64,000 nucleotides of DNA from an uncultured Actinomycetota bacterium (lineage in GTDB: Bacteria > Actinomycetota > Actinomycetes > JAHEKZ01): the NCBI GenBank assembly GCA_963829525.1, contig CAWHIJ010000003.1, positions 2,368,001-2,432,000 on the forward strand, read 5' to 3'. Within the stretch, counting starts at the first letter, position 1, and every line of letters starts with the position of its first letter. A program made the translations under genes and the position numbers. A model generated the notes under the pieces. That model did no database searches. It was not told where the DNA came from and saw nothing but the letters and a program-made list of their open reading frames with translations. This document shows positions 39,745-47,901 of this stretch, in pieces.

Positions 39745-41300
39745 ATGTCGACCCCCGACAAGATCACCGAGATCGAAGAGCATGCGCACCGGCCCAAGAG
39801 CCTGGTACTCGCGCTCATCGTGATCTGTACCGCGCAACTGATGGTGGTGCTCGACGCCACGATCGTGAACATCGCACTCCCGAGCATCAAAGACGACCTC
39901 GGCTTCTCGCAGGCCAACCTCCAATGGGTGCTCACCGCCTACACGCTGGCCTTCGGCGGCTTCCTGCTGCTTGGCGGCCGCGCCGGTGACATCCTGGGTC
40001 GTCGCCGCGTCTTCATCTTCGGAATCCTGCTCTTCACTGTCGGCTCACTCGGCGGCGGCTTCGCGTGGAGCGAAGGGTCGCTGCTGGCGTTCCGCGCCAT
40101 CCAGGGACTCGGTGCCGCCATTGCCGCGCCCACCGCACTGTCGCTCATCGCCACCGAGTTCCCCGAGGGCAAAGAGCGCAACCGCGCAATGGGTGTCTAC
40201 GCGGCCATGTCTGGAGCCGGCGCCGCGGTCGGCCTGATCCTCGGTGGAATCCTCACCGAGATCGACTGGCGCTGGGTGATGTTCGTCAACGTCCCGATCG
40301 GGCATATTCATCGCACTCGTGGCGCCACGCGCGCTCACCGAAACCGAACGCCACACTGGCAAGTTCGACCTGCCGGGAGCAATCGCCGCCACCACGGGCC
40401 TGGCCATGCTGGTCTACGGCCTCACCCGCGTCGCCACGGACGTCGGCAAGAACGCCACCGCCGGGATCGCCGATCCAGCGCAGGAGGCTTGGACCAACAC
40501 CACGAACATCGCGATCATCGCCACCTCGGTCGTCATCCTCGCCGTCTTCATCGTCCTCGAGGCACGCAGCCGCCATGCGCTCATGCCGCTGCGAATCTTC
40601 GAGAACCGCAACCGTGCCGGTGCCTACGGCATCATGCTGATCATTGGTGCTGCCATGTTCGGGATGTTCTTCTACCTCACCCAGTTCGTGCAGGAGATTC
40701 TCGGGTACTCGCCGATCAAGGCCGGTTTCGCCTTCCTCCCCGTGAGCGTCTGCATCATCTTGTCCGCGGGTACCGCGTCACAGCTCATCACCCGATTTGG
40801 CGCCAAACCGTTCGCCTTGATCGGGTACTGCCATGACCGCGATCGGCATGATGTGGCTGGCGCAGATCCAGCCTGACTCCACCTACGTCGGAGGCCTGCT
40901 CGGCCCGATGATCGTGTTCGCGCTCGGTCTGGGCTTCACCTTCATGCCGCTGACCTTGGCGGCGGTTTCGCAGATCGACGAGAGTGACGCGGGAATTGCG
41001 TCAGGTGTCCTCAACACCACGCAACAGATCGGTGGATCGATTGGCCTCGCCGCTCTCACCACTGTTTCGGTGACCGTGTTTGCCACTCAGTTCGCCGACT
41101 TCATCAATGGCGGTGGGACGCCCCCGGCATCGGGAGCGCCACTCCCCGCTGAGCTGGTCACCGCTCAGGTCGACGGCTGGACGGCCGCGTTCCAGGTCTC
41201 CGCCTGGCTGGCGGTAGGTGCGTTTATCATCACCATCTTTGCCATCAAGGTGACGAAGGAAGAGGCCGCCCACGCCGGCCCCGTCGGCGGCGCTCACTAG
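39745..41300 (+). CDS. DHA2-type (14-TM) MFS efflux transporter (two frameshifts)
   Basis: VLDATIVNIALP, GRAGDILGRRR, WRWVMFVNVPIG; FDLPGA; ASGVLNTTQQIGG. Confidence 0.88.
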
Positions 41301-41311
41301 TCGACAACCAG

Positions 41312-41357
41312 CAACGTGGTGGTGCGGTCGATCTAGCGGCCGCACCCCACCACGTTG
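41312..41357. terminator. Hairpin between convergent genes
   Basis: caacgtggtggtgcggtcg / cggccgcaccccaccacgttg stem with a bulge. Confidence 0.55.
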
Positions 41358-41362
41358 TTCGT

Positions 41363-42052
41363 TCAGCCGGGCGGCGGAGCGGTGCCACCGAGCCGCTGCG
41401 GTTGCCACCACTGTCCCGCACCGTCATCGGGGTACTCGTCTTGCGCACGTCGCACGAGTGCAATCACCTGTGATCGAAGTTCGGTGGCCGCCGCGTCACC
41501 GGTCAAGGTTGCTTCGATCGGTTCCCCGACGTAGACACTGACCGGTACGCCGCGCTGCTTGAGCGTGGAGTGCTCGTCGTAGGTCCAGAGCCGCTGGCTT
41601 CCCCAGACTGCCACCGGGATGAGCGGCGACTTGGTGGCTTTCGCCAGCCGTTCGGCCCCGGTCTTGAACTCCTTGGGCTCGAACGGCCGACTGATCGTTG
41701 CCTCCGGGAAGAGCCCGACCACCTCACCCGCCTTGAGCGCATCGAGCGCATCGCGAAAGCTCTGCATTCCCGCCTCACGGTCGACCGAGATATGGTGCAT
41801 GCCGCGCATCAAAGGCCCCGCCAACCAGTGAGCGAAGATCGGCTCCTTGGCCATGAACCGCACGTAGCGCCGCGACTGTCGAGCACCGAGGCCCACAAAT
41901 ATGAAGTCGAGGTGGCTGACGTGGTTCGACGCCATGACCGCAGATCCAAGGGCAGGAACGTGTTCGCCGCCCTCGACGCGAAGCTGTAGACCCAGAGCCT
42001 TAAAGGCGGTGAGGGTTGCAGCAATCACTGGTGGGTAGACAAGTTCAGACAC
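41363..42052 (-). CDS. Lysophospholipid acyltransferase (PlsC family)
   Basis: NHVSHLD (HX4D), FMAK, FPEATIS; TAGGCT 7 nt before the GTG at 42052. Confidence 0.9.
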   Translation of the reverse strand: MSELVYPPVIAATLTAFKALGLQLRVEGGEHVPALGSAVMASNHVSHLDFIFVGLGARQSRRYVRFMAKEPIFAHWLAGPLMRGMHHISVDREAGMQSFRDALDALKAGEVVGLFPEATISRPFEPKEFKTGAERLAKATKSPLIPVAVWGSQRLWTYDEHSTLKQRGVPVSVYVGEPIEATLTGDAAATELRSQVIALVRRAQDEYPDDGAGQWWQPQRLGGTAPPPG

Positions 42053-42083
42053 GGCAGTGAGCCTATCTGGGGACAATTCGGGT

Positions 42084-42896
42084 TTAGCGCGAGCGAACGG
42101 GAACGAAGCTCTGGGCAACGAGAAGAGCTGCATCGGCGCCTTCGGCGGCGAGAACGGCCGCCACGTGGTCCTCAACCGCTGACAACATCATTTCCGGGTC
42201 ACCCCGGTGCACCAGGCCACGCTTCTTTGCGATGACGGCAATCACCGTCGCGCGATGGATCGTCGCCCGGCGAGTTGACAGCTCACCCTCGTCAGCATCG
42301 GGGAACGCGTGCACAACCCCGTCACCGGCCGCGAGCTCGAGAAGTGCCGACCCAGCTCGGCGGCCGACTCGACCAGACTCAAGATGCCCAGACTCAAGAT
42401 GCCCAGACTCAAGGTGCCCAGCCGAAAGATGTGGGGCACCGAGGTTGAGCGCCCACACCGTCGCGTCCCCCACAGGGTGGACTACCTGAGAAGCGAACCG
42501 AGCGGCCTGCTCCCACCTGCCCGATTGCCAGCACGCCGCGACGCAGGTCTCGACCAGGTCGGCGATGCGTTCGTCAGATGCCCGCCACTCGAGCCATTCA
42601 CCGAGGCCGGCACGGCGAGCGGCCTCCGCCAGGTGCAGATCACTGGCCGCGGCCGTCGCCTCCCGGCTTACGCAGGCAGGGCATTGGGGCTCGGCCCACA
42701 CGTGGACCGCGAGGATGACGTCGAGCACCGAGTCGCCGAGGAACTCCATCCGCTGAAACTGCCGACCACGCCCGTCTCGCACGGCGTGCAGTGCCTCCTC
42801 ACTCGAAAGAGGCCCCAACACGGCTTCGATCTGGCCGCGTTCGGCGGCGGTCACCACGGCTCGAAGCCTCGGCGGCGGAGTATCCGGCAACGTCAC
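42084..42896 (-). CDS. Protein with two tandem RNase III-like domains and no dsRBD
   Basis: Domain A: QRMEFLGDSVL and ADLVE. Domain B: AGSALLEL..FPDADEGELSTRRA and LSAVEDHVAAVLAAEG. GTG overlaps the sbcC stop (GTGA). Confidence 0.8.
   Translation of the reverse strand: MTLPDTPPPRLRAVVTAAERGQIEAVLGPLSSEEALHAVRDGRGRQFQRMEFLGDSVLDVILAVHVWAEPQCPACVSREATAAASDLHLAEAARRAGLGEWLEWRASDERIADLVETCVAACWQSGRWEQAARFASQVVHPVGDATVWALNLGAPHLSAGHLESGHLESGHLESGRVGRRAGSALLELAAGDGVVHAFPDADEGELSTRRATIHRATVIAVIAKKRGLVHRGDPEMMLSAVEDHVAAVLAAEGADAALLVAQSFVPVRSR
42373..42417. repeat. Three in-frame 15-bp tandem repeats encoding (GHLES)3
   Basis: ccagactcaagatgc twice plus ccagactcaaggtgc. Confidence 0.9.
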
Positions 42897-45878
42897 GCAG
42901 AGACCACCAGCCGGCTGGAACCATCCCGGTTCGGCACCACAGTGATGCGCTCAGCAATACGCTCTTTGAGCTCAGGGACATGGCTGACGATGCCGACGAC
43001 GCGCCCACTGGTTCCAAGACCAGAAAGCACCGAAAGCACGTTGTCCAAGGTGTCCGGGTCCAGCGAACCGAAGCCCTCGTCGACGAACAGCGTCCCGAGG
43101 TCGACGCCACCAGCCTCCGCCGTCACGACGTCTGCCAGCCCGAGGGCCATCGCAAGTGAGCAGTAGAAGGTCTCGCCTCCCGAGAGCGTCCCCGGATCGC
43201 GTAGCTGGTCGGTGTGGGTGTCGCGCACGCGCAGCCCGAGACCGCTCCGCTTGTTGCCCTCACGGTCTTCGACGTGCTCAAGGGTGTAGCGACCATCACT
43301 CATGGTGGCAAGCCGATCGTTTGCCGACGCCACGACGTCGGCGAATCGTTCACGCAGCACGAATGTCGGCAGGCTCATCGACCGCACGTTGTCTGGCGGT
43401 AGACCCGCTCACCAGATCGGCCATTCGAATCACCGGCGCCGTCGATCGCTCAATCTCGGCGTGGGCGGTCAGCGCCGCATCGACCTCAGCGGCGCGCAGG
43501 ACGCTGTCATCAAGGCGCTGCCGAAGCTGGGCGAGCTGATCGTGCACGGCCTGTTGAGCAGCCTCGGAGTGAGCAACCACTGCGTCGGCAGCCCGCACGT
43601 CGATCACCTCATTGACGTCGACGTCGACAAGATCTGGGGCTGAAAGCTCGGCGCCAAGCTGAGCTCGTCGTCGGTCGGTCGCGTCGAGACTTTCGACAAG
43701 GGCAGACCTCTCACTCTCCTCAAGTCGAGCCGCTATCACCTCGTCGCGAGTGTCGAAGGGAGCGTCCGCCAGCTCAGTGGCCCACTCCGATGCCCGTATG
43801 TCGCAGTCGGCCTTCGCCGACTCTGCCGTCTGGGATGCCTCGGCCGCTGCGGCGAAGGAGTCGGCCTCCGCGTGGAGCGCCGCGATTCGCTCGGCAATAG
43901 ATCCGTGTCCCTCCAGTGCTGCAGCGACTCGCTGCTCGTCAGACTCCACCGCTTCCTTTGCAGCCTGAACCTCGGTCTGCAGCCGAGCTGACGCACCAGC
44001 AAGCTCAACACTGGCGGTGCGGTGCCGGGCGATGTCCTGCTCACGAGCGGCGATGTCAGCCTCGATCCGCTCGGCGTCCTGGGTGGCGATCTCCAGGTCA
44101 GCCACGGCAAGGTCGGCATTGACCAGCGCCAGCTGCGCCTCAGCAACTGAGACGCCATCAGCCCGGCCACGCAACTCTGCGAGCTCAGCTGCGACCTTGT
44201 TCGCCTCAGCCGAAGTCGCCTCGAGCGCGGCGGTCGCCTCGGCCAATCGCTCGGCGGCTGCGTCGACGTCCGACCGGGTCACATCGCCCGGCTTGCGCGC
44301 TGCTGGACGGGGGTGTTGGCGCGATCCACACACCGGACAAGGTTCGTCGGCGACCAGCCCAGATGCGATGTATCCCGCCATCCCGTCAAGGAAACGGCGA
44401 CGGATGTCGGTCTCTTCGGCCAGGCACTGCTGGGCAAGCTGGTGGGCTGCCTCTCGTGCTGCACCGGTCTCGGCTGCACGACCTTGCGAGGCGTCCAGCT
44501 CGGCGGTAGCCGCCAGCACCGCTGCCGCTGCCCGACGTGCGTCCGGCGCCCCAGTCCGCTCGCCACGTAGTGTCAACGCCGCCGCAAGTTGCTGCCGGAG
44601 GTCGGTGAGGACGGCGGGCGCCAGGACAAGTACCTCGTCGGCCTCCCTGCGCCGTCGCTCGACTTCGTCCTGCTCCGCTACCAGGACGGTCAGCCTCTGA
44701 ACACGCCCCGACAGCGTCAGCTCAAGCTCACGCAGCGCGGCAAGCTCGGCAGCGCGGTCCCGGAGGGAGCGTTCGCGTTGGTGCCATGTCTCTGCAGCCG
44801 ATTGCGGTTCAGCCAGGGCGGAGCGTCGTTCTGCCAGCACCGCAGCTGCTACATCGCGACGTTGCTCTGCCGCGGCTAATCCGTCGAGGAGTGGGACCAG
44901 CCGGGTCGCATCGTCAGCTCGAATCAGCCGAGCGCGGTCGGCGTCTCGCTGGTCAGCGAGGGAATCATGGGCGGCTAGTTCACCGCGCAGTGCAACCACA
45001 CGCCGTCGGGCTCGTTCGCGGGCCAGGCAGTCCGTCGCTCGCTTCCGTGCTTCCTCGACGATGCTCGTTGCCGAGGCGGCGGTAGCAGCAACTGTCTCAA
45101 CCTCGCGTCCCAGCTGATCAATCTGTTCGGCGGTTGCCCCGCCCAGCCCTCCTGCGGGCTTCTCGACAAGTGCAGCTTCGGCTTCCTCGTCGAGCCCGGC
45201 AGCTCCGCAGTAGGCACGAATGGCGCCAGCCACTGCAACGGCTGCGGCCACCTTGGACTGCCGCGCTGCCCTTCGTTGATCGACGAGCCGTTCAAGAACG
45301 GTGTCGTAGATCTCCGTTCCAAAGAGCCGCTGCAACAGCTCGCGCCGCACCTCAGGGGCTGACCGCAAGAACGTGGCGAACTCGCCTTGCGGGAGAACCA
45401 CGGTCTGGACGAACTGCTCCTGCGTCAGCCCCACGATCCTTGTCACCTCGCCGCCCACCTCGTCCAGCCTGGTGGATATGGGCTCACCGAGATCGGTGGA
45501 CGCGGCGCCCGGTGATGCGAGGAGCCAAAGCTTGGCCGACGCATTTTCTGTCGTCGTTCCGTCGCCGCGTCGTTTGGCGCGCTCGTGCTTAGGGGTGCGA
45601 CGGATGCGGTACATGCCATGGGCTGTGCTGAAGTCCAGCTCGACGAACGGCGTGACGTCTGGCCCTGCGACGTCGGAGTGCATGCGGTCAGCACTGGAGG
45701 TGCGCCCAGCCACGTCACCATAGAGCGCGAAGACGATTGCATCGATCAGCGTGGACTTACCGGCACCGGTCGGGCCTTCGAGCAGGAACAGACCCGAGGC
45801 GGCCAGCCGCTCGACGTCGACTTCGCAGGTCTGGGCGAACGGCCCGATCGCACAGAGGGTGAGGCGGTGCAGCTGCAT
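42893..45878 (-). CDS. sbcC: SbcC/Rad50-like SMC ATPase (frameshift near 43385)
   Basis: Walker A GPTGAGKS, LPQGEFA Q-loop, long coiled coil, zinc hook CPVCGS; in the next frame LSGGE, LFVDEGFGSLD and VSH. Confidence 0.92.
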
Positions 45879-47071
45879 CAGGCGCTCCGGCCCTCGGCAA
45901 GTGCCCACTCATAGGCACTGGTGAACGTGACGAGCTCGGCCGATGAGATGTCACCACCGGTGACGTAGCGGACAAAGGCTTCGGCCACCTCCGCCGGCTG
46001 AGCCGGGACTTGTGACGATCGATCCTTCTGTTCGACAAGCGGACCGCACGCCGGAACGTGCCGGATCACCAGTGCCTCGGAGAACCTGTCTCGAACTTTG
46101 GCGACCATTTCAGATGGACGCGCCGCGTCAGTCACCGACACCTGCACCCAGGCGTGGGTGACGCTAATGAACTCATCCGAGGTGAGCAGCTCATCGAGAG
46201 TGCCGCCGATAGACGCCATATCTCGTGGTTGCTGCACAACCACCGACTCAGTGCCGCCAAAACCGTTGGGGCCTAGGTCGACCACCAGAAGCTGTTTTTG
46301 CTGGTTGACCTCGCTGAACGAGTAGCGCACCGGGGAGCCGGAGTACCGGACGTTCTCGCGTCCCACGCGCTGTGCCCCGTGCAAGTGTCCAAGTGCTACA
46401 TAGTCGAAGCCGCTGAAGACCTCACTAGGGACGCTGTCGACACCACCGACTCTGATGTCGCGCTCGCTGTCGCTGCGCTCGCTGTCGCCTTCGGTGCCCC
46501 GCACCTCTGCCGCCACGACGAACGCATGGGCCATGACCACCGCTCGCGACGCCGGCTCGGTAGCGCGACGAGCAGCGAGGTCGCCCCTGACTCGGTTCAT
46601 GGCCGCCGTCATGACGGCCTCGTGCGACCGCTCCAGCGGTTGGCCGCCATCGCTGAGCGCATGTCGAGCGACATCGGGGTCGAGAAAGGGAATCGGGTAG
46701 ACCAACACCGGACCAGCGGCATCGTGCAGCTGAATGGGAGTGCCAACAGCGCTCAACTCGGTGACGATATGGACGCCGTCGCGGAACAGGTCGGAGCCGA
46801 CACCCAAGCGCGTGGCTGAGTCATGGTTGCCAGGGATGACGATCACCGGAACGAGGGCGGAGAGCTCTTTGAGCGCATCCGACCAGAGGCGCACAGATCT
46901 CACGGGCGGCACCGCACGGTCATAGACGTCTCCAGCGATGAGCACCACATCCACCGAATAGCGCCTCACGCTGTCGACAACCTGATCGACTACGTGCTGC
47001 TGTGCCTCGTGCAGATCAACGCCGTGCAGTCCACGGCCCAGATGCCAGTCAGACGTGTGCAGCAGGCGCAT
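45878..47071 (-). CDS. sbcD: SbcD/Mre11-like nuclease
   Basis: LHTSDWHLG, AGDVYD, GNHDS, AHAFV, ALGHLH, YSGSP; TGATG overlap with sbcC. Confidence 0.95.
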   Translation of the reverse strand: MRLLHTSDWHLGRGLHGVDLHEAQQHVVDQVVDSVRRYSVDVVLIAGDVYDRAVPPVRSVRLWSDALKELSALVPVIVIPGNHDSATRLGVGSDLFRDGVHIVTELSAVGTPIQLHDAAGPVLVYPIPFLDPDVARHALSDGGQPLERSHEAVMTAAMNRVRGDLAARRATEPASRAVVMAHAFVVAAEVRGTEGDSERSDSERDIRVGGVDSVPSEVFSGFDYVALGHLHGAQRVGRENVRYSGSPVRYSFSEVNQQKQLLVVDLGPNGFGGTESVVVQQPRDMASIGGTLDELLTSDEFISVTHAWVQVSVTDAARPSEMVAKVRDRFSEALVIRHVPACGPLVEQKDRSSQVPAQPAEVAEAFVRYVTGGDISSAELVTFTSAYEWALAEGRSA

Positions 47072-47077
47072 GCGCTG

Positions 47078-47099
47078 ACGCTACCGACCGGCGCCGACA
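47078..47099 (-). promoter_or_regulatory. PafBC/RecA-NDp-type DNA-damage promoter of sbcD
   Basis: TGTCGG-cgccggtcgg-TA-gcg-T followed by 6 nt and the ATG; exact match to TGTCGG-N10-TA-N3-T. Confidence 0.8.
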
Positions 47100-47144
47100 G
47101 AACGCGGGAGGCAGGCGTGGGATCTTTGGTGCGGAGCGGATCGA

Positions 47145-47750
47145 TCAGTAGATCTGTGAACCTGAACCCAAAGCAGCCGAGACGCCTGGTGCAGCATTCA
47201 GTGGGGCAGCGACGACAACGTTGCCGTGACGGACCCAACCGATCGCCGAGTTCGTCTGCGGGTCTTTGAGGAGTGCCGCGACCCACTTCTCAGCCTCGGC
47301 GGGCGACTCGAAGAGTCTGACCGCCATCGTGGCGTTGCAGGTGGCAACGTCCCCTGACACCGCCGCCCCGTTGCACACGATCCCGCCGTCCTCGAGGGCG
47401 GAAATCACCATTGTCGGATCGGACACGCTCGCCGGTAGGCCACTTTCACCGGATCCACTAAGTGCCCCAGCGGCCCATACCGCGCCGGCTGCAACTGCCA
47501 GTGCCAGGACCGCGCCGGTAACGATCTTGCCCTTGCCGCTTCCCCGGGGGGCTTCGGTGGTCTCCGCTTCCGCCGAGTCGTCGACGGGCTCCTGGGGAAC
47601 CTGGTCGAGCTCAGGATCGAGGACGGGCTCAACCACTCCGTCTGGGAGGACCGCGTCTTCGGCAGCCGAATCGGCGATCAGGGCGTCCTCAGCGAGCACT
47701 GTGCCCTCGGCCGCCTCGTCGACGGACTCGGACTTCTTGCGTGCGGACAC
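47145..47750 (-). CDS. Hypothetical single-pass membrane protein
   Basis: Acidic N-terminus, one TM segment, C-terminal domain with two Cys; RBS ggagg. Confidence 0.65.
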   Translation of the reverse strand: MSARKKSESVDEAAEGTVLAEDALIADSAAEDAVLPDGVVEPVLDPELDQVPQEPVDDSAEAETTEAPRGSGKGKIVTGAVLALAVAAGAVWAAGALSGSGESGLPASVSDPTMVISALEDGGIVCNGAAVSGDVATCNATMAVRLFESPAEAEKWVAALLKDPQTNSAIGWVRHGNVVVAAPLNAAPGVSAALGSGSQIY

Positions 47751-47875
47751 GTAACCTCCCAGGTAGTCCCTGCGCTGGAATCGGCTCGCGGACGGTTGAG
47801 CCTTCGCCCTCGTCACCCGTTCGGCCCAGTCCCAGAAGGGGACAGTTCAGTCACAGAGGTGGCCCACCTGGTCGG

Positions 47876-47901
47876 TCAACCTGCTGCCTCCAACAGCCGA
47901 A
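47876..47901 (+). promoter_or_regulatory. Putative sigma28/WhiG-like promoter
   Basis: TCAAC-N15-GCCGAA upstream of ORF 47948. Confidence 0.5.

Follow-up and report, generated by a model that had tools for sequence, protein, structure and literature searches.

Gene content of the locus

A row of three genes, sbcD, sbcC and a third gene for a protein with two RNase III domains, lies at positions 42084-47099 of a 64,000-nucleotide (nt) stretch of contig CAWHIJ010000003.1 from an uncultured Actinomycetota bacterium (JAHEKZ01; assembly GCA_963829525.1). The whole stretch that was analysed is hereafter called the window, and all positions are those of the window unless a contig is named. The genes were identified by searching the proteins of the locus with Pfam and NCBIfam profiles (Table 1). 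The first protein scored 164.8 bits against TIGR00619 over residues 1-259 (cut-off, 77.65 bits), and Metallophos (1.2e-13) and SbcD_C were also matched. It thus passes the subfamily threshold for the SbcD subunit of SbcCD, an Mre11-type metallophosphoesterase. In SbcC all parts of a Rad50-like protein are present, and CPVCG is visible in the translation of the N-terminal part. The protein is, however, split in the assembly, and neither half alone attains the whole-protein cut-off. An earlier reading of the window, made from the letters alone (hereafter the sequence-only reading), had named the three genes and had recognized the tandem RNase III. These identities were borne out by the profile searches and, for the third protein, by sequence matches in the Protein Data Bank (PDB), an AlphaFold2 model, Foldseek and VIA-align.

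Table 1. Features at the sbcD-sbcC-RNase III locus (positions in the window; ORF, open reading frame; aa, amino acids)
Feature	Position	Strand	Basis or remark
RecA-NDp/PafBC-type motif TGTCGG-N10-TAGCGT	47078-47099	minus	Sole match in the window; leaderless, with 6 nt from the end of the -10-like hexamer to the sbcD ATG (47071)
Conserved GCCTCCCGCG element directly upstream of the motif, possibly part of the regulator site	47103-47112	minus	By eye, 13 upstream sequences
sbcD (397 aa), Mre11-type nuclease subunit	45878-47071	minus	TIGR00619, Metallophos, SbcD_C
sbcC, N-terminal 842 codons: Walker A head, coiled coil, CPVC hook	43350-45878	minus	AAA_23, TIGR00618 positions 1-194
One-base excess splitting sbcC	43394-43400	minus	Alignment to relatives and run contigs
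sbcC, C-terminal part with the signature and Walker B lobe, a 164-aa ORF out of frame with the N-terminal part	42893-43387	minus	SbcC_Walker_B, NF041751 positions 850-990 of 1007
Third gene (270 aa), single-chain tandem RNase III	42084-42896	minus	Pfam Ribonuclease_3, two matched stretches
15-nt tandem repeat, 3.3 copies, GHLES x3 in the inter-domain linker	42373-42421	minus	TRF
plsC leaderless promoter-like TAGGCT, and probable GTG start	42065-42060; 42052-42050	minus	Hexamer 7 nt before GTG; downstream limit of the presumed damage-controlled unit
Upstream gene up223 (223 aa)	47145-47816		Same position in most relatives

The third gene encodes a tandem RNase III protein

The third protein belongs to the RNase III superfamily, with 48.9 bits against PF00636 (cut-off, 27 bits). 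Both of its halves match RNase III profiles, and its top sequence matches in the PDB are Drosha and Dicer-like proteins. Against the Rnc profile TIGR02191 it scored 48.2 bits, below the cut-off of 166.25 bits, and a second RNase III-like domain makes up its C-terminal half. The canonical rnc gene is found at another place in the genome. In the Pfam search the protein showed no match to dsrm, the double-stranded RNA-binding domain (dsRBD), and no further domains. Family size was estimated by a search of 1.84 billion proteins, in which 37 of the best 150 representatives were matched over the full length. In the ESM Atlas, only generic RNase III clusters were found, with scores of 0.89 or below.

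Three alignments of the tandem RNase III, A1 (19 sequences), A3 (9 sequences) and A7 (27 sequences), were used to inspect the catalytic residues. In the N domain the catalytic acids E51, D55, D113 and E116 are all present, and they are invariant in A1, in A3 and, in the equivalent columns, in A7. In the degenerate C domain, the positions of the signature acids are taken by R179 and S183, the segment GSALLEL being aligned with GDAVLEL, and an invariant R and an S or A are found there in all 19 sequences of A1.

An AlphaFold2 model of the protein, calculated from a 19-row alignment, showed a pLDDT of 90.8 and a pTM of 0.90. VIA-align superposed the model on DCL3 (7vg2) and Drosha (5b16) with a Z of 18.6 and a root-mean-square deviation of 3.7-3.9 over 250-251 residues. 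Bacterial single-domain RNase III was superposed on the N half only, with a Z of about 12-13.6 over 117-130 residues. Foldseek likewise placed Drosha and Dicer on top (TMq, 0.54-0.67), with bacterial RNase III covering one half only (TMq, 0.36-0.39). In the predicted model the two RNase III domains pair within one chain in the manner of Dicer and Drosha. Two intact sites and the accessory helicase, PAZ and dsRBD modules, which also mark those enzymes, are absent. The third protein is therefore modelled as a Drosha/Dicer-like intramolecular dimer of RNase III domains. With one catalytic site, such a dimer would be expected to cut one strand of a duplex, that is, to nick it.

A complex of SbcD, the SbcC head (in two pieces) and the RNase was also predicted; the score was 0.00 in both runs, which had no controls, and it was counted neither for nor against binding.

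The repeat in the linker deserves a comment. The GHLES insertion is not found in the other 18 sequences of A1, 15 nt (one copy) are missing in the contig of sequencing run X5 (see below), and the linker is the part of the AlphaFold2 model with the lowest confidence. The repeat appears to vary in length between strains, as a polymorphism of a loop modelled with low confidence. Another feature of the N domain is the set of H65, C72, C75, C118 and H140, which is invariant or nearly so in A1; the CxxC is absent from the most distant homologues. Judged from these residues, the set may form a metal site.

Promoter upstream of sbcD

The motif ahead of sbcD, which the sequence-only reading had described as an exact TGTCGG-N10-TA-N3-T in leaderless position, is indeed found there. 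Its reading as a PafBC/RecA-NDp promoter also held. Of 13 loci, 11 have the motif at -28 or -29 relative to the start of sbcD, and the other two retain the -10 hexamer. The GCCTCCCGCG element is kept, or nearly so, in the closer relatives. With the form TGTC[AG]G-N10-TANNNT, 17 matches were found in the genome. The long ORFs downstream of these matches include RecA, UvrB, UvrA, RadA and a DEDD-exonuclease/UvrC-like protein, together with four DUF222-HNH proteins, and several matches share the leaderless position of the sbcD motif. The genome also carries adjacent pafBC-like genes, one PafC-like (HTH_PafC, WYL and WCX) and one PafB-like (WYL and WCX). The spacing, the -10 hexamer close to the start codon, the core repair genes behind the same motif and the presence of pafBC agree with what is expected of a RecA-NDp promoter, the consensus of which has a TGTC(A/G)G element at a fixed spacing from a TANNNT -10 hexamer.

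Taken alone, the motif is weak evidence, as it is not beyond chance: 0.15 matches are expected in the window, and at least one match was found in 13 of 100 shuffles. The motif and the junctions together exceed chance because they are conserved across loci and because repair genes sit downstream of the motif. The sequence of the sbcD promoter thus supports a leaderless PafBC/RecA-NDp type, from which a PafBC-dependent and LexA-independent induction of the operon by DNA damage would be predicted. According to PMC6789036 and PMC8223512, PafBC works via RecA-NDp. In PMC11348249, sbcD is named with adnAB among the fork-repair genes of the PafBC regulon in Mycolicibacterium smegmatis. The link between this promoter and sbcD is already known from mycobacteria and is not new.

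A scan for the sigma-70 consensus at 41200-47900 gave 0 promoter-like sites; such a scan is uninformative for leaderless actinobacterial promoters.

Several other sites in the genome were noted in passing. On contig C3 of the genome (G000), a RecA-NDp-like motif stands ahead of four DUF222(-HNH) paralogues (upstream of L126, L127, L129 and L134). One of them, with its motif at C3:2148515, carries a TCGAAC-N4-GTTCGA palindrome immediately behind the -10 hexamer, which resembles the actinobacterial LexA box. At C3:332734 (L125) the motif lies in leaderless position 6 nt before the start of a gene for a DrrA-like ABC-transporter ATPase. This gene is possibly a non-repair member of the regulon, or the match arose by chance.

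Junctions of the three genes

The sequence-only reading had the three genes joined by stop/start overlaps. Both junctions were confirmed, but sbcC itself is split by a one-base frameshift in the assembly. At TGATG (45880-45876), the TGA of sbcD (45880-45878) and the ATG of sbcC (45878-45876) have one base in common. At GTGA (42896-42893), the GTG start of the third gene (42896-42894) overlaps the TGA of sbcC (42895-42893). The latter junction is a 4-nt GTGA/ATGA overlap in 14 of the 16 linked loci and a spacer of 5-7 nt in the other 2. No TANNNT hexamer was seen 5-10 nt ahead of the GTG of the RNase gene, and the coding strand at 41200-47900 showed no terminator-like site.

Such overlaps are common in this genome. 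Rough gene calls of our own on a 400-kb stretch gave 212 same-strand neighbour pairs, among which a 4-nt overlap is possible in 38 and a 1-nt overlap in 10 (23% together). The junctions therefore argue for co-transcription, not for a common function. From the tight coupling in 16/16 linked loci and the lack of a TANNNT hexamer before the GTG, the RNase gene is probably co-transcribed with sbcDC, as the sequence-only reading had proposed.

Distribution and linkage to sbcCD

The distribution of the RNase gene was analysed in the order of the window, represented by 20 species genomes in one family, and in 401 sampled genomes of the class. The gene is present in 18 of the 20 genomes, and sbcC lies immediately upstream of it in 16 of these 18. 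Genus g4 differs. One of its genomes (G003) shows the order up223-RNase-plsC with sbcDC missing, and in another (G004) the RNase gene is present but neither SbcC nor SbcD was found over the cut-off. Two metagenome contigs (L161 and L162) carry the RNase gene without sbcCD, matching the g4 genomes. In one further genome (G010) sbcD sits on a short contig, and the gap seen there is therefore probably an assembly gap.

A two-domain match was found in 21 of the 401 class genomes, and outside the family only in G345, G247 and G181. In G345 and G181, sbcC is on another contig than the RNase gene. The neighbours of these outside homologues are unrelated genes, as they are in Geodermatophilus pulveris. 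None of the four more distant genome homologues (0/4) adjoins sbcC, and a RecA-NDp-type motif was found ahead of none of seven unlinked RNase loci. A candidate homologue in Blastococcus (L020) matched in the N part only and was overlapped by a long ORF on the opposite strand; it was excluded from the conclusions and from the tree.

The upstream neighbour was surveyed over 55 loci from genomes and metagenome contigs. It is sbcC in 22 loci, a MaoC-like gene in 11, up223 in 3 and another gene in 14, and 5 loci have no upstream sequence. The MaoC-like dehydratase gene codes for 296-304 aa and is separated from the RNase gene by a gap of a few bases, with DUF2505 and Abhydrolase_9 genes further upstream. 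The 11 MaoC-linked loci, which are metagenome loci (L141, L142, L147-L149, L153-L156, L158 and L160) form a separate clade. DUF2505 and Abhydrolase_9 neighbours are also found in G345 (L115). The tandem RNase III recurs in two contexts, behind sbcC and behind the MaoC-like gene, and linkage to sbcC is confined to one family-level lineage.

A tree of the RNase was built from 48 of the 55 rows. Three partial rows of less than 200 aa (L015, L150 and L159), the weak or partial matches L166, L167 and L020, and a near-copy of L009 (L010) were left out. The rows linked to sbcC fall on several deep branches of one main (starred) clade, which also includes the rows without sbcCD and the MaoC clade. The deep branches form a polytomy, which gives no sequence for the gains and losses of linkage to sbcC.

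The frameshift in sbcC and the neighbouring genes

As assembled, sbcC is not one frame: the stretch between 45878 and 42893 measures 2986 nt, no multiple of 3, and the first frame stops at 43350. The C-terminal ORF is 74-99% identical to the relatives, which have this part in frame with the N-terminal part. An alignment with relatives showed a single additional base in the window at about 43394, in comparison with 4/4 of them. Logan contigs from four sequencing runs (X1, X2, X5 and X6) were compared with the locus. In run X1 only one contig covers the site (463 nt, 0 other differences), and it is without one base at 43400; in run X5 likewise only one contig covers it (6010 nt, from a relative about 95% alike), and this contig is without one base at 43398. 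In runs X2 and X6 no contig spans the site. Run X1 may be the source sample, and its contig is thus not independent proof. With one base removed, sbcC is 2985 nt long, the same length as in the related locus L003. Because the contigs of X1 and X5 omit the extra base, the frameshift is probably due to an error in the assembly or to strain variation. A programmed frameshift was also considered. It was rejected in view of the in-frame relatives and the two contigs without the extra base.

Downstream of the RNase gene lies plsC, the product of which matches acyltransferase profiles in Pfam and NCBIfam. The sequence-only reading had given it a -10 of its own, and this was substantiated by the TAGGCT before the GTG and its conservation in relatives. 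In eight relatives (L003, L006-L008 and L011-L014), the TAG stop of the RNase gene itself opens the TAGGCT, and the GTG follows 6-7 nt later. The TAGGCT of the window is found 19 nt further downstream than in those relatives. In tblastn, PlsC is conserved from about residue 32-42 of its longest ORF onwards. The start of that ORF, TTG at 42175, is thus probably wrong, and the GTG at 42052 agrees with the conservation.

On the other side, up223 showed no match in Pfam or PADLOC, and where sbcDC is absent it lies immediately ahead of the RNase gene. One genome (G014) holds two near-identical copies of sbcD-sbcC-RNase (L009 and L010, also L080 and L091), both of which break off at contig ends within the RNase gene. 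Rather than a duplication, this pair probably reflects redundancy in the assembly or the presence of two strains in one bin.

Interpretation of the locus

We favour, with a probability of about 0.5, the reading that the locus is a damage-inducible, leaderless sbcDC operon of a known type, with which a separable tandem RNase III travels as a passenger or a co-regulated helper, not as an obligate subunit. The sbcD-sbcC operon would be of the PafBC/RecA-NDp type, leaderless and induced by DNA damage, an arrangement known in Actinomycetes. The third cistron would be translationally coupled to sbcC in this lineage of uncultured freshwater and sediment Actinomycetes, and through this coupling the RNase would most likely be produced whenever SbcCD is induced. 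The RNase is predicted to bind an A-form duplex and to cut one strand of it, so that it would nick but not dice. Its work may be separable from that of SbcCD, since the gene is kept in G003 and G004 without sbcCD, since the distant homologues are unlinked and without the motif, and since a MaoC-linked clade exists.

Several facts weigh against this reading. Genome-wide, the motif is not in excess, with 13 matches observed and about 10.8 expected under independent base frequencies. Among 20 runs listed for the locus, no RNA run was found. The single active site is deduced from an alignment and a predicted model. The RNase copy of G004 is truncated at its C-terminus, which could mean decay once SbcCD was gone, and in G001 sbcD, sbcC and the RNase gene are all absent together. 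Finally, the sbcC linkage is old, given that linked rows occur on several of the deep branches within the main clade, and it persists where both flanks differ (L016 and L017); this fits some functional tie.

A functional tie would be explained if the three products formed one functional unit, in which the asymmetric RNase III acts at SbcCD substrates. It might, for example, open RNA:DNA hybrids, R-loops or RNA-capped ends by a nick in the RNA strand and so enable SbcCD to process the DNA. This agrees with sbcC directly upstream in most RNase-bearing genomes of the lineage, with the tight coupling in every linked locus, with a triad that stays intact beside differing upstream and downstream neighbours, with the spread of the linked state across deep branches and with the joint absence in G001. 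One live and one dead site would also suit a duplex of two unlike strands. We nevertheless consider a single unit unlikely. Genus g4 and the contigs L161 and L162 retain the RNase without sbcCD, the distant genome homologues are unlinked and 11 loci are MaoC-linked, overlapping junctions are commonplace in the genome, and the linked cases all belong to one family-level lineage and are hence not independent. Also against it, RNase III domains are not known to cut hybrids. The sequence-only reading had gone further and proposed a dedicated three-component module, to be given up if homologues of the third gene were mostly unlinked to sbcCD. Outside the one family-level lineage this is what the neighbourhood survey found, and the proposal does not stand in that form. 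A more specific version is in our view distinctly doubtful: at breaks and stalled forks, a Drosha-like RNase III with one live and one dead site would act as a damage-induced SbcCD accessory by nicking the RNA strand in RNA:DNA hybrids or at RNA-blocked ends.

The varying gene contexts across the family, the retention of the RNase after loss of sbcCD, the unlinked homologues without the motif and the frequency of possible overlaps among same-strand neighbours would all be expected, on the other hand, of a housekeeping enzyme of RNA maturation, acting like Mini-III on rRNA precursors. It would have no role in damage, and its position behind sbcC would be an accident in a compact genome. The family is, however, narrow (the two-domain match in 21/401 class genomes and the 37 full-length matches among the best 150), which would be odd for a core role, and the canonical rnc gene is also present in the genome. 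Moreover, a gene without its own promoter behind a leaderless damage promoter would presumably have a poor basal supply, and a housekeeping role thus appears improbable. Defence against phages or plasmids, built on an SMC/Rad50-like ATPase and nucleases, would draw on the weak matches of the N-terminal part of SbcC to Rad50-like defence ATPases (LmuB, 1.4e-18, among others), which are expected from common ancestry. In a search with PADLOC models at E<=0.001, 0 families were matched by the RNase, SbcD or the upstream gene, and SbcC gave generic Rad50-like matches only. SbcD and SbcC score as bona fide members of the SbcCD subfamily, the promoter is of the repair-regulon type, and the locus is syntenic and vertically inherited and does not lie in a variable island. 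A defence system is therefore very improbable, and the reading of a known-type operon with a separable RNase remains the one that we prefer.

Relation to known systems and implications

The SbcD and SbcC family membership, the RecA-NDp-type motif ahead of sbcD and the pafBC-like genes resemble what is known of SbcCD from E. coli and of the sbcD-sbcC genes of the mycobacterial PafBC regulon. The difference is the additional, translationally coupled third cistron, which is RNase III-like. The third protein shares with Drosha and Dicer the two RNase III domains per chain (RIIIDa and RIIIDb in those enzymes), modelled here as an intramolecular dimer. In contrast to them, it is bacterial, is only 255-270 aa long, has no helicase, PAZ or dsRBD and has a degenerate second site. 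The tandem most likely arose independently of Drosha and Dicer, by internal duplication. The N domain has the full ExxGD...DxxE set of bacterial class 1 RNase III (Rnc), and the protein resembles Mini-III, which is without a dsRBD, in lacking this domain. Rnc and Mini-III are, however, single-domain homodimers with two equal sites, whereas the protein described here is a fused pseudo-dimer predicted to have one. In the trypanosome editosome, an RNase III endonuclease pairs with a degenerate partner, so that there is one active site and one strand of the duplex is cut. Those heterodimers consist of two polypeptides in a large eukaryotic complex; here there is one small bacterial chain.

In the papers searched, such as PMC5303251, a chain with two RNase III domains is regarded as a eukaryotic feature (Dicer and Drosha), and bacteria are described with single-domain homodimers. 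The literature searched yielded no account of a tandem RNase III in one chain from bacteria, nor of an operon that joins sbcCD to an RNase III gene. The tandem RNase III family thus appears to be undescribed. Of the candidate for an undescribed system that the sequence-only reading had named at this locus, the RNase family is what is left: the promoter link of sbcD was already known, and the data speak weakly for a module.

The sbcDC operon with its PafBC-type promoter is known biology, here extended to an uncultured lineage; what is new is the third gene. Its family would offer a compact model in which to study the evolution of RNase III asymmetry and of strand-selective cutting, and the enzyme could serve as a natural nickase of double-stranded RNA. 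If the RNase cooperates with SbcCD, the cleavage of RNA duplexes would be linked to break processing in bacteria. Drosha and Dicer are reportedly involved with MRN at eukaryotic double-strand breaks, and an RNase III accessory of SbcCD, if true, would be a prokaryotic parallel to them.

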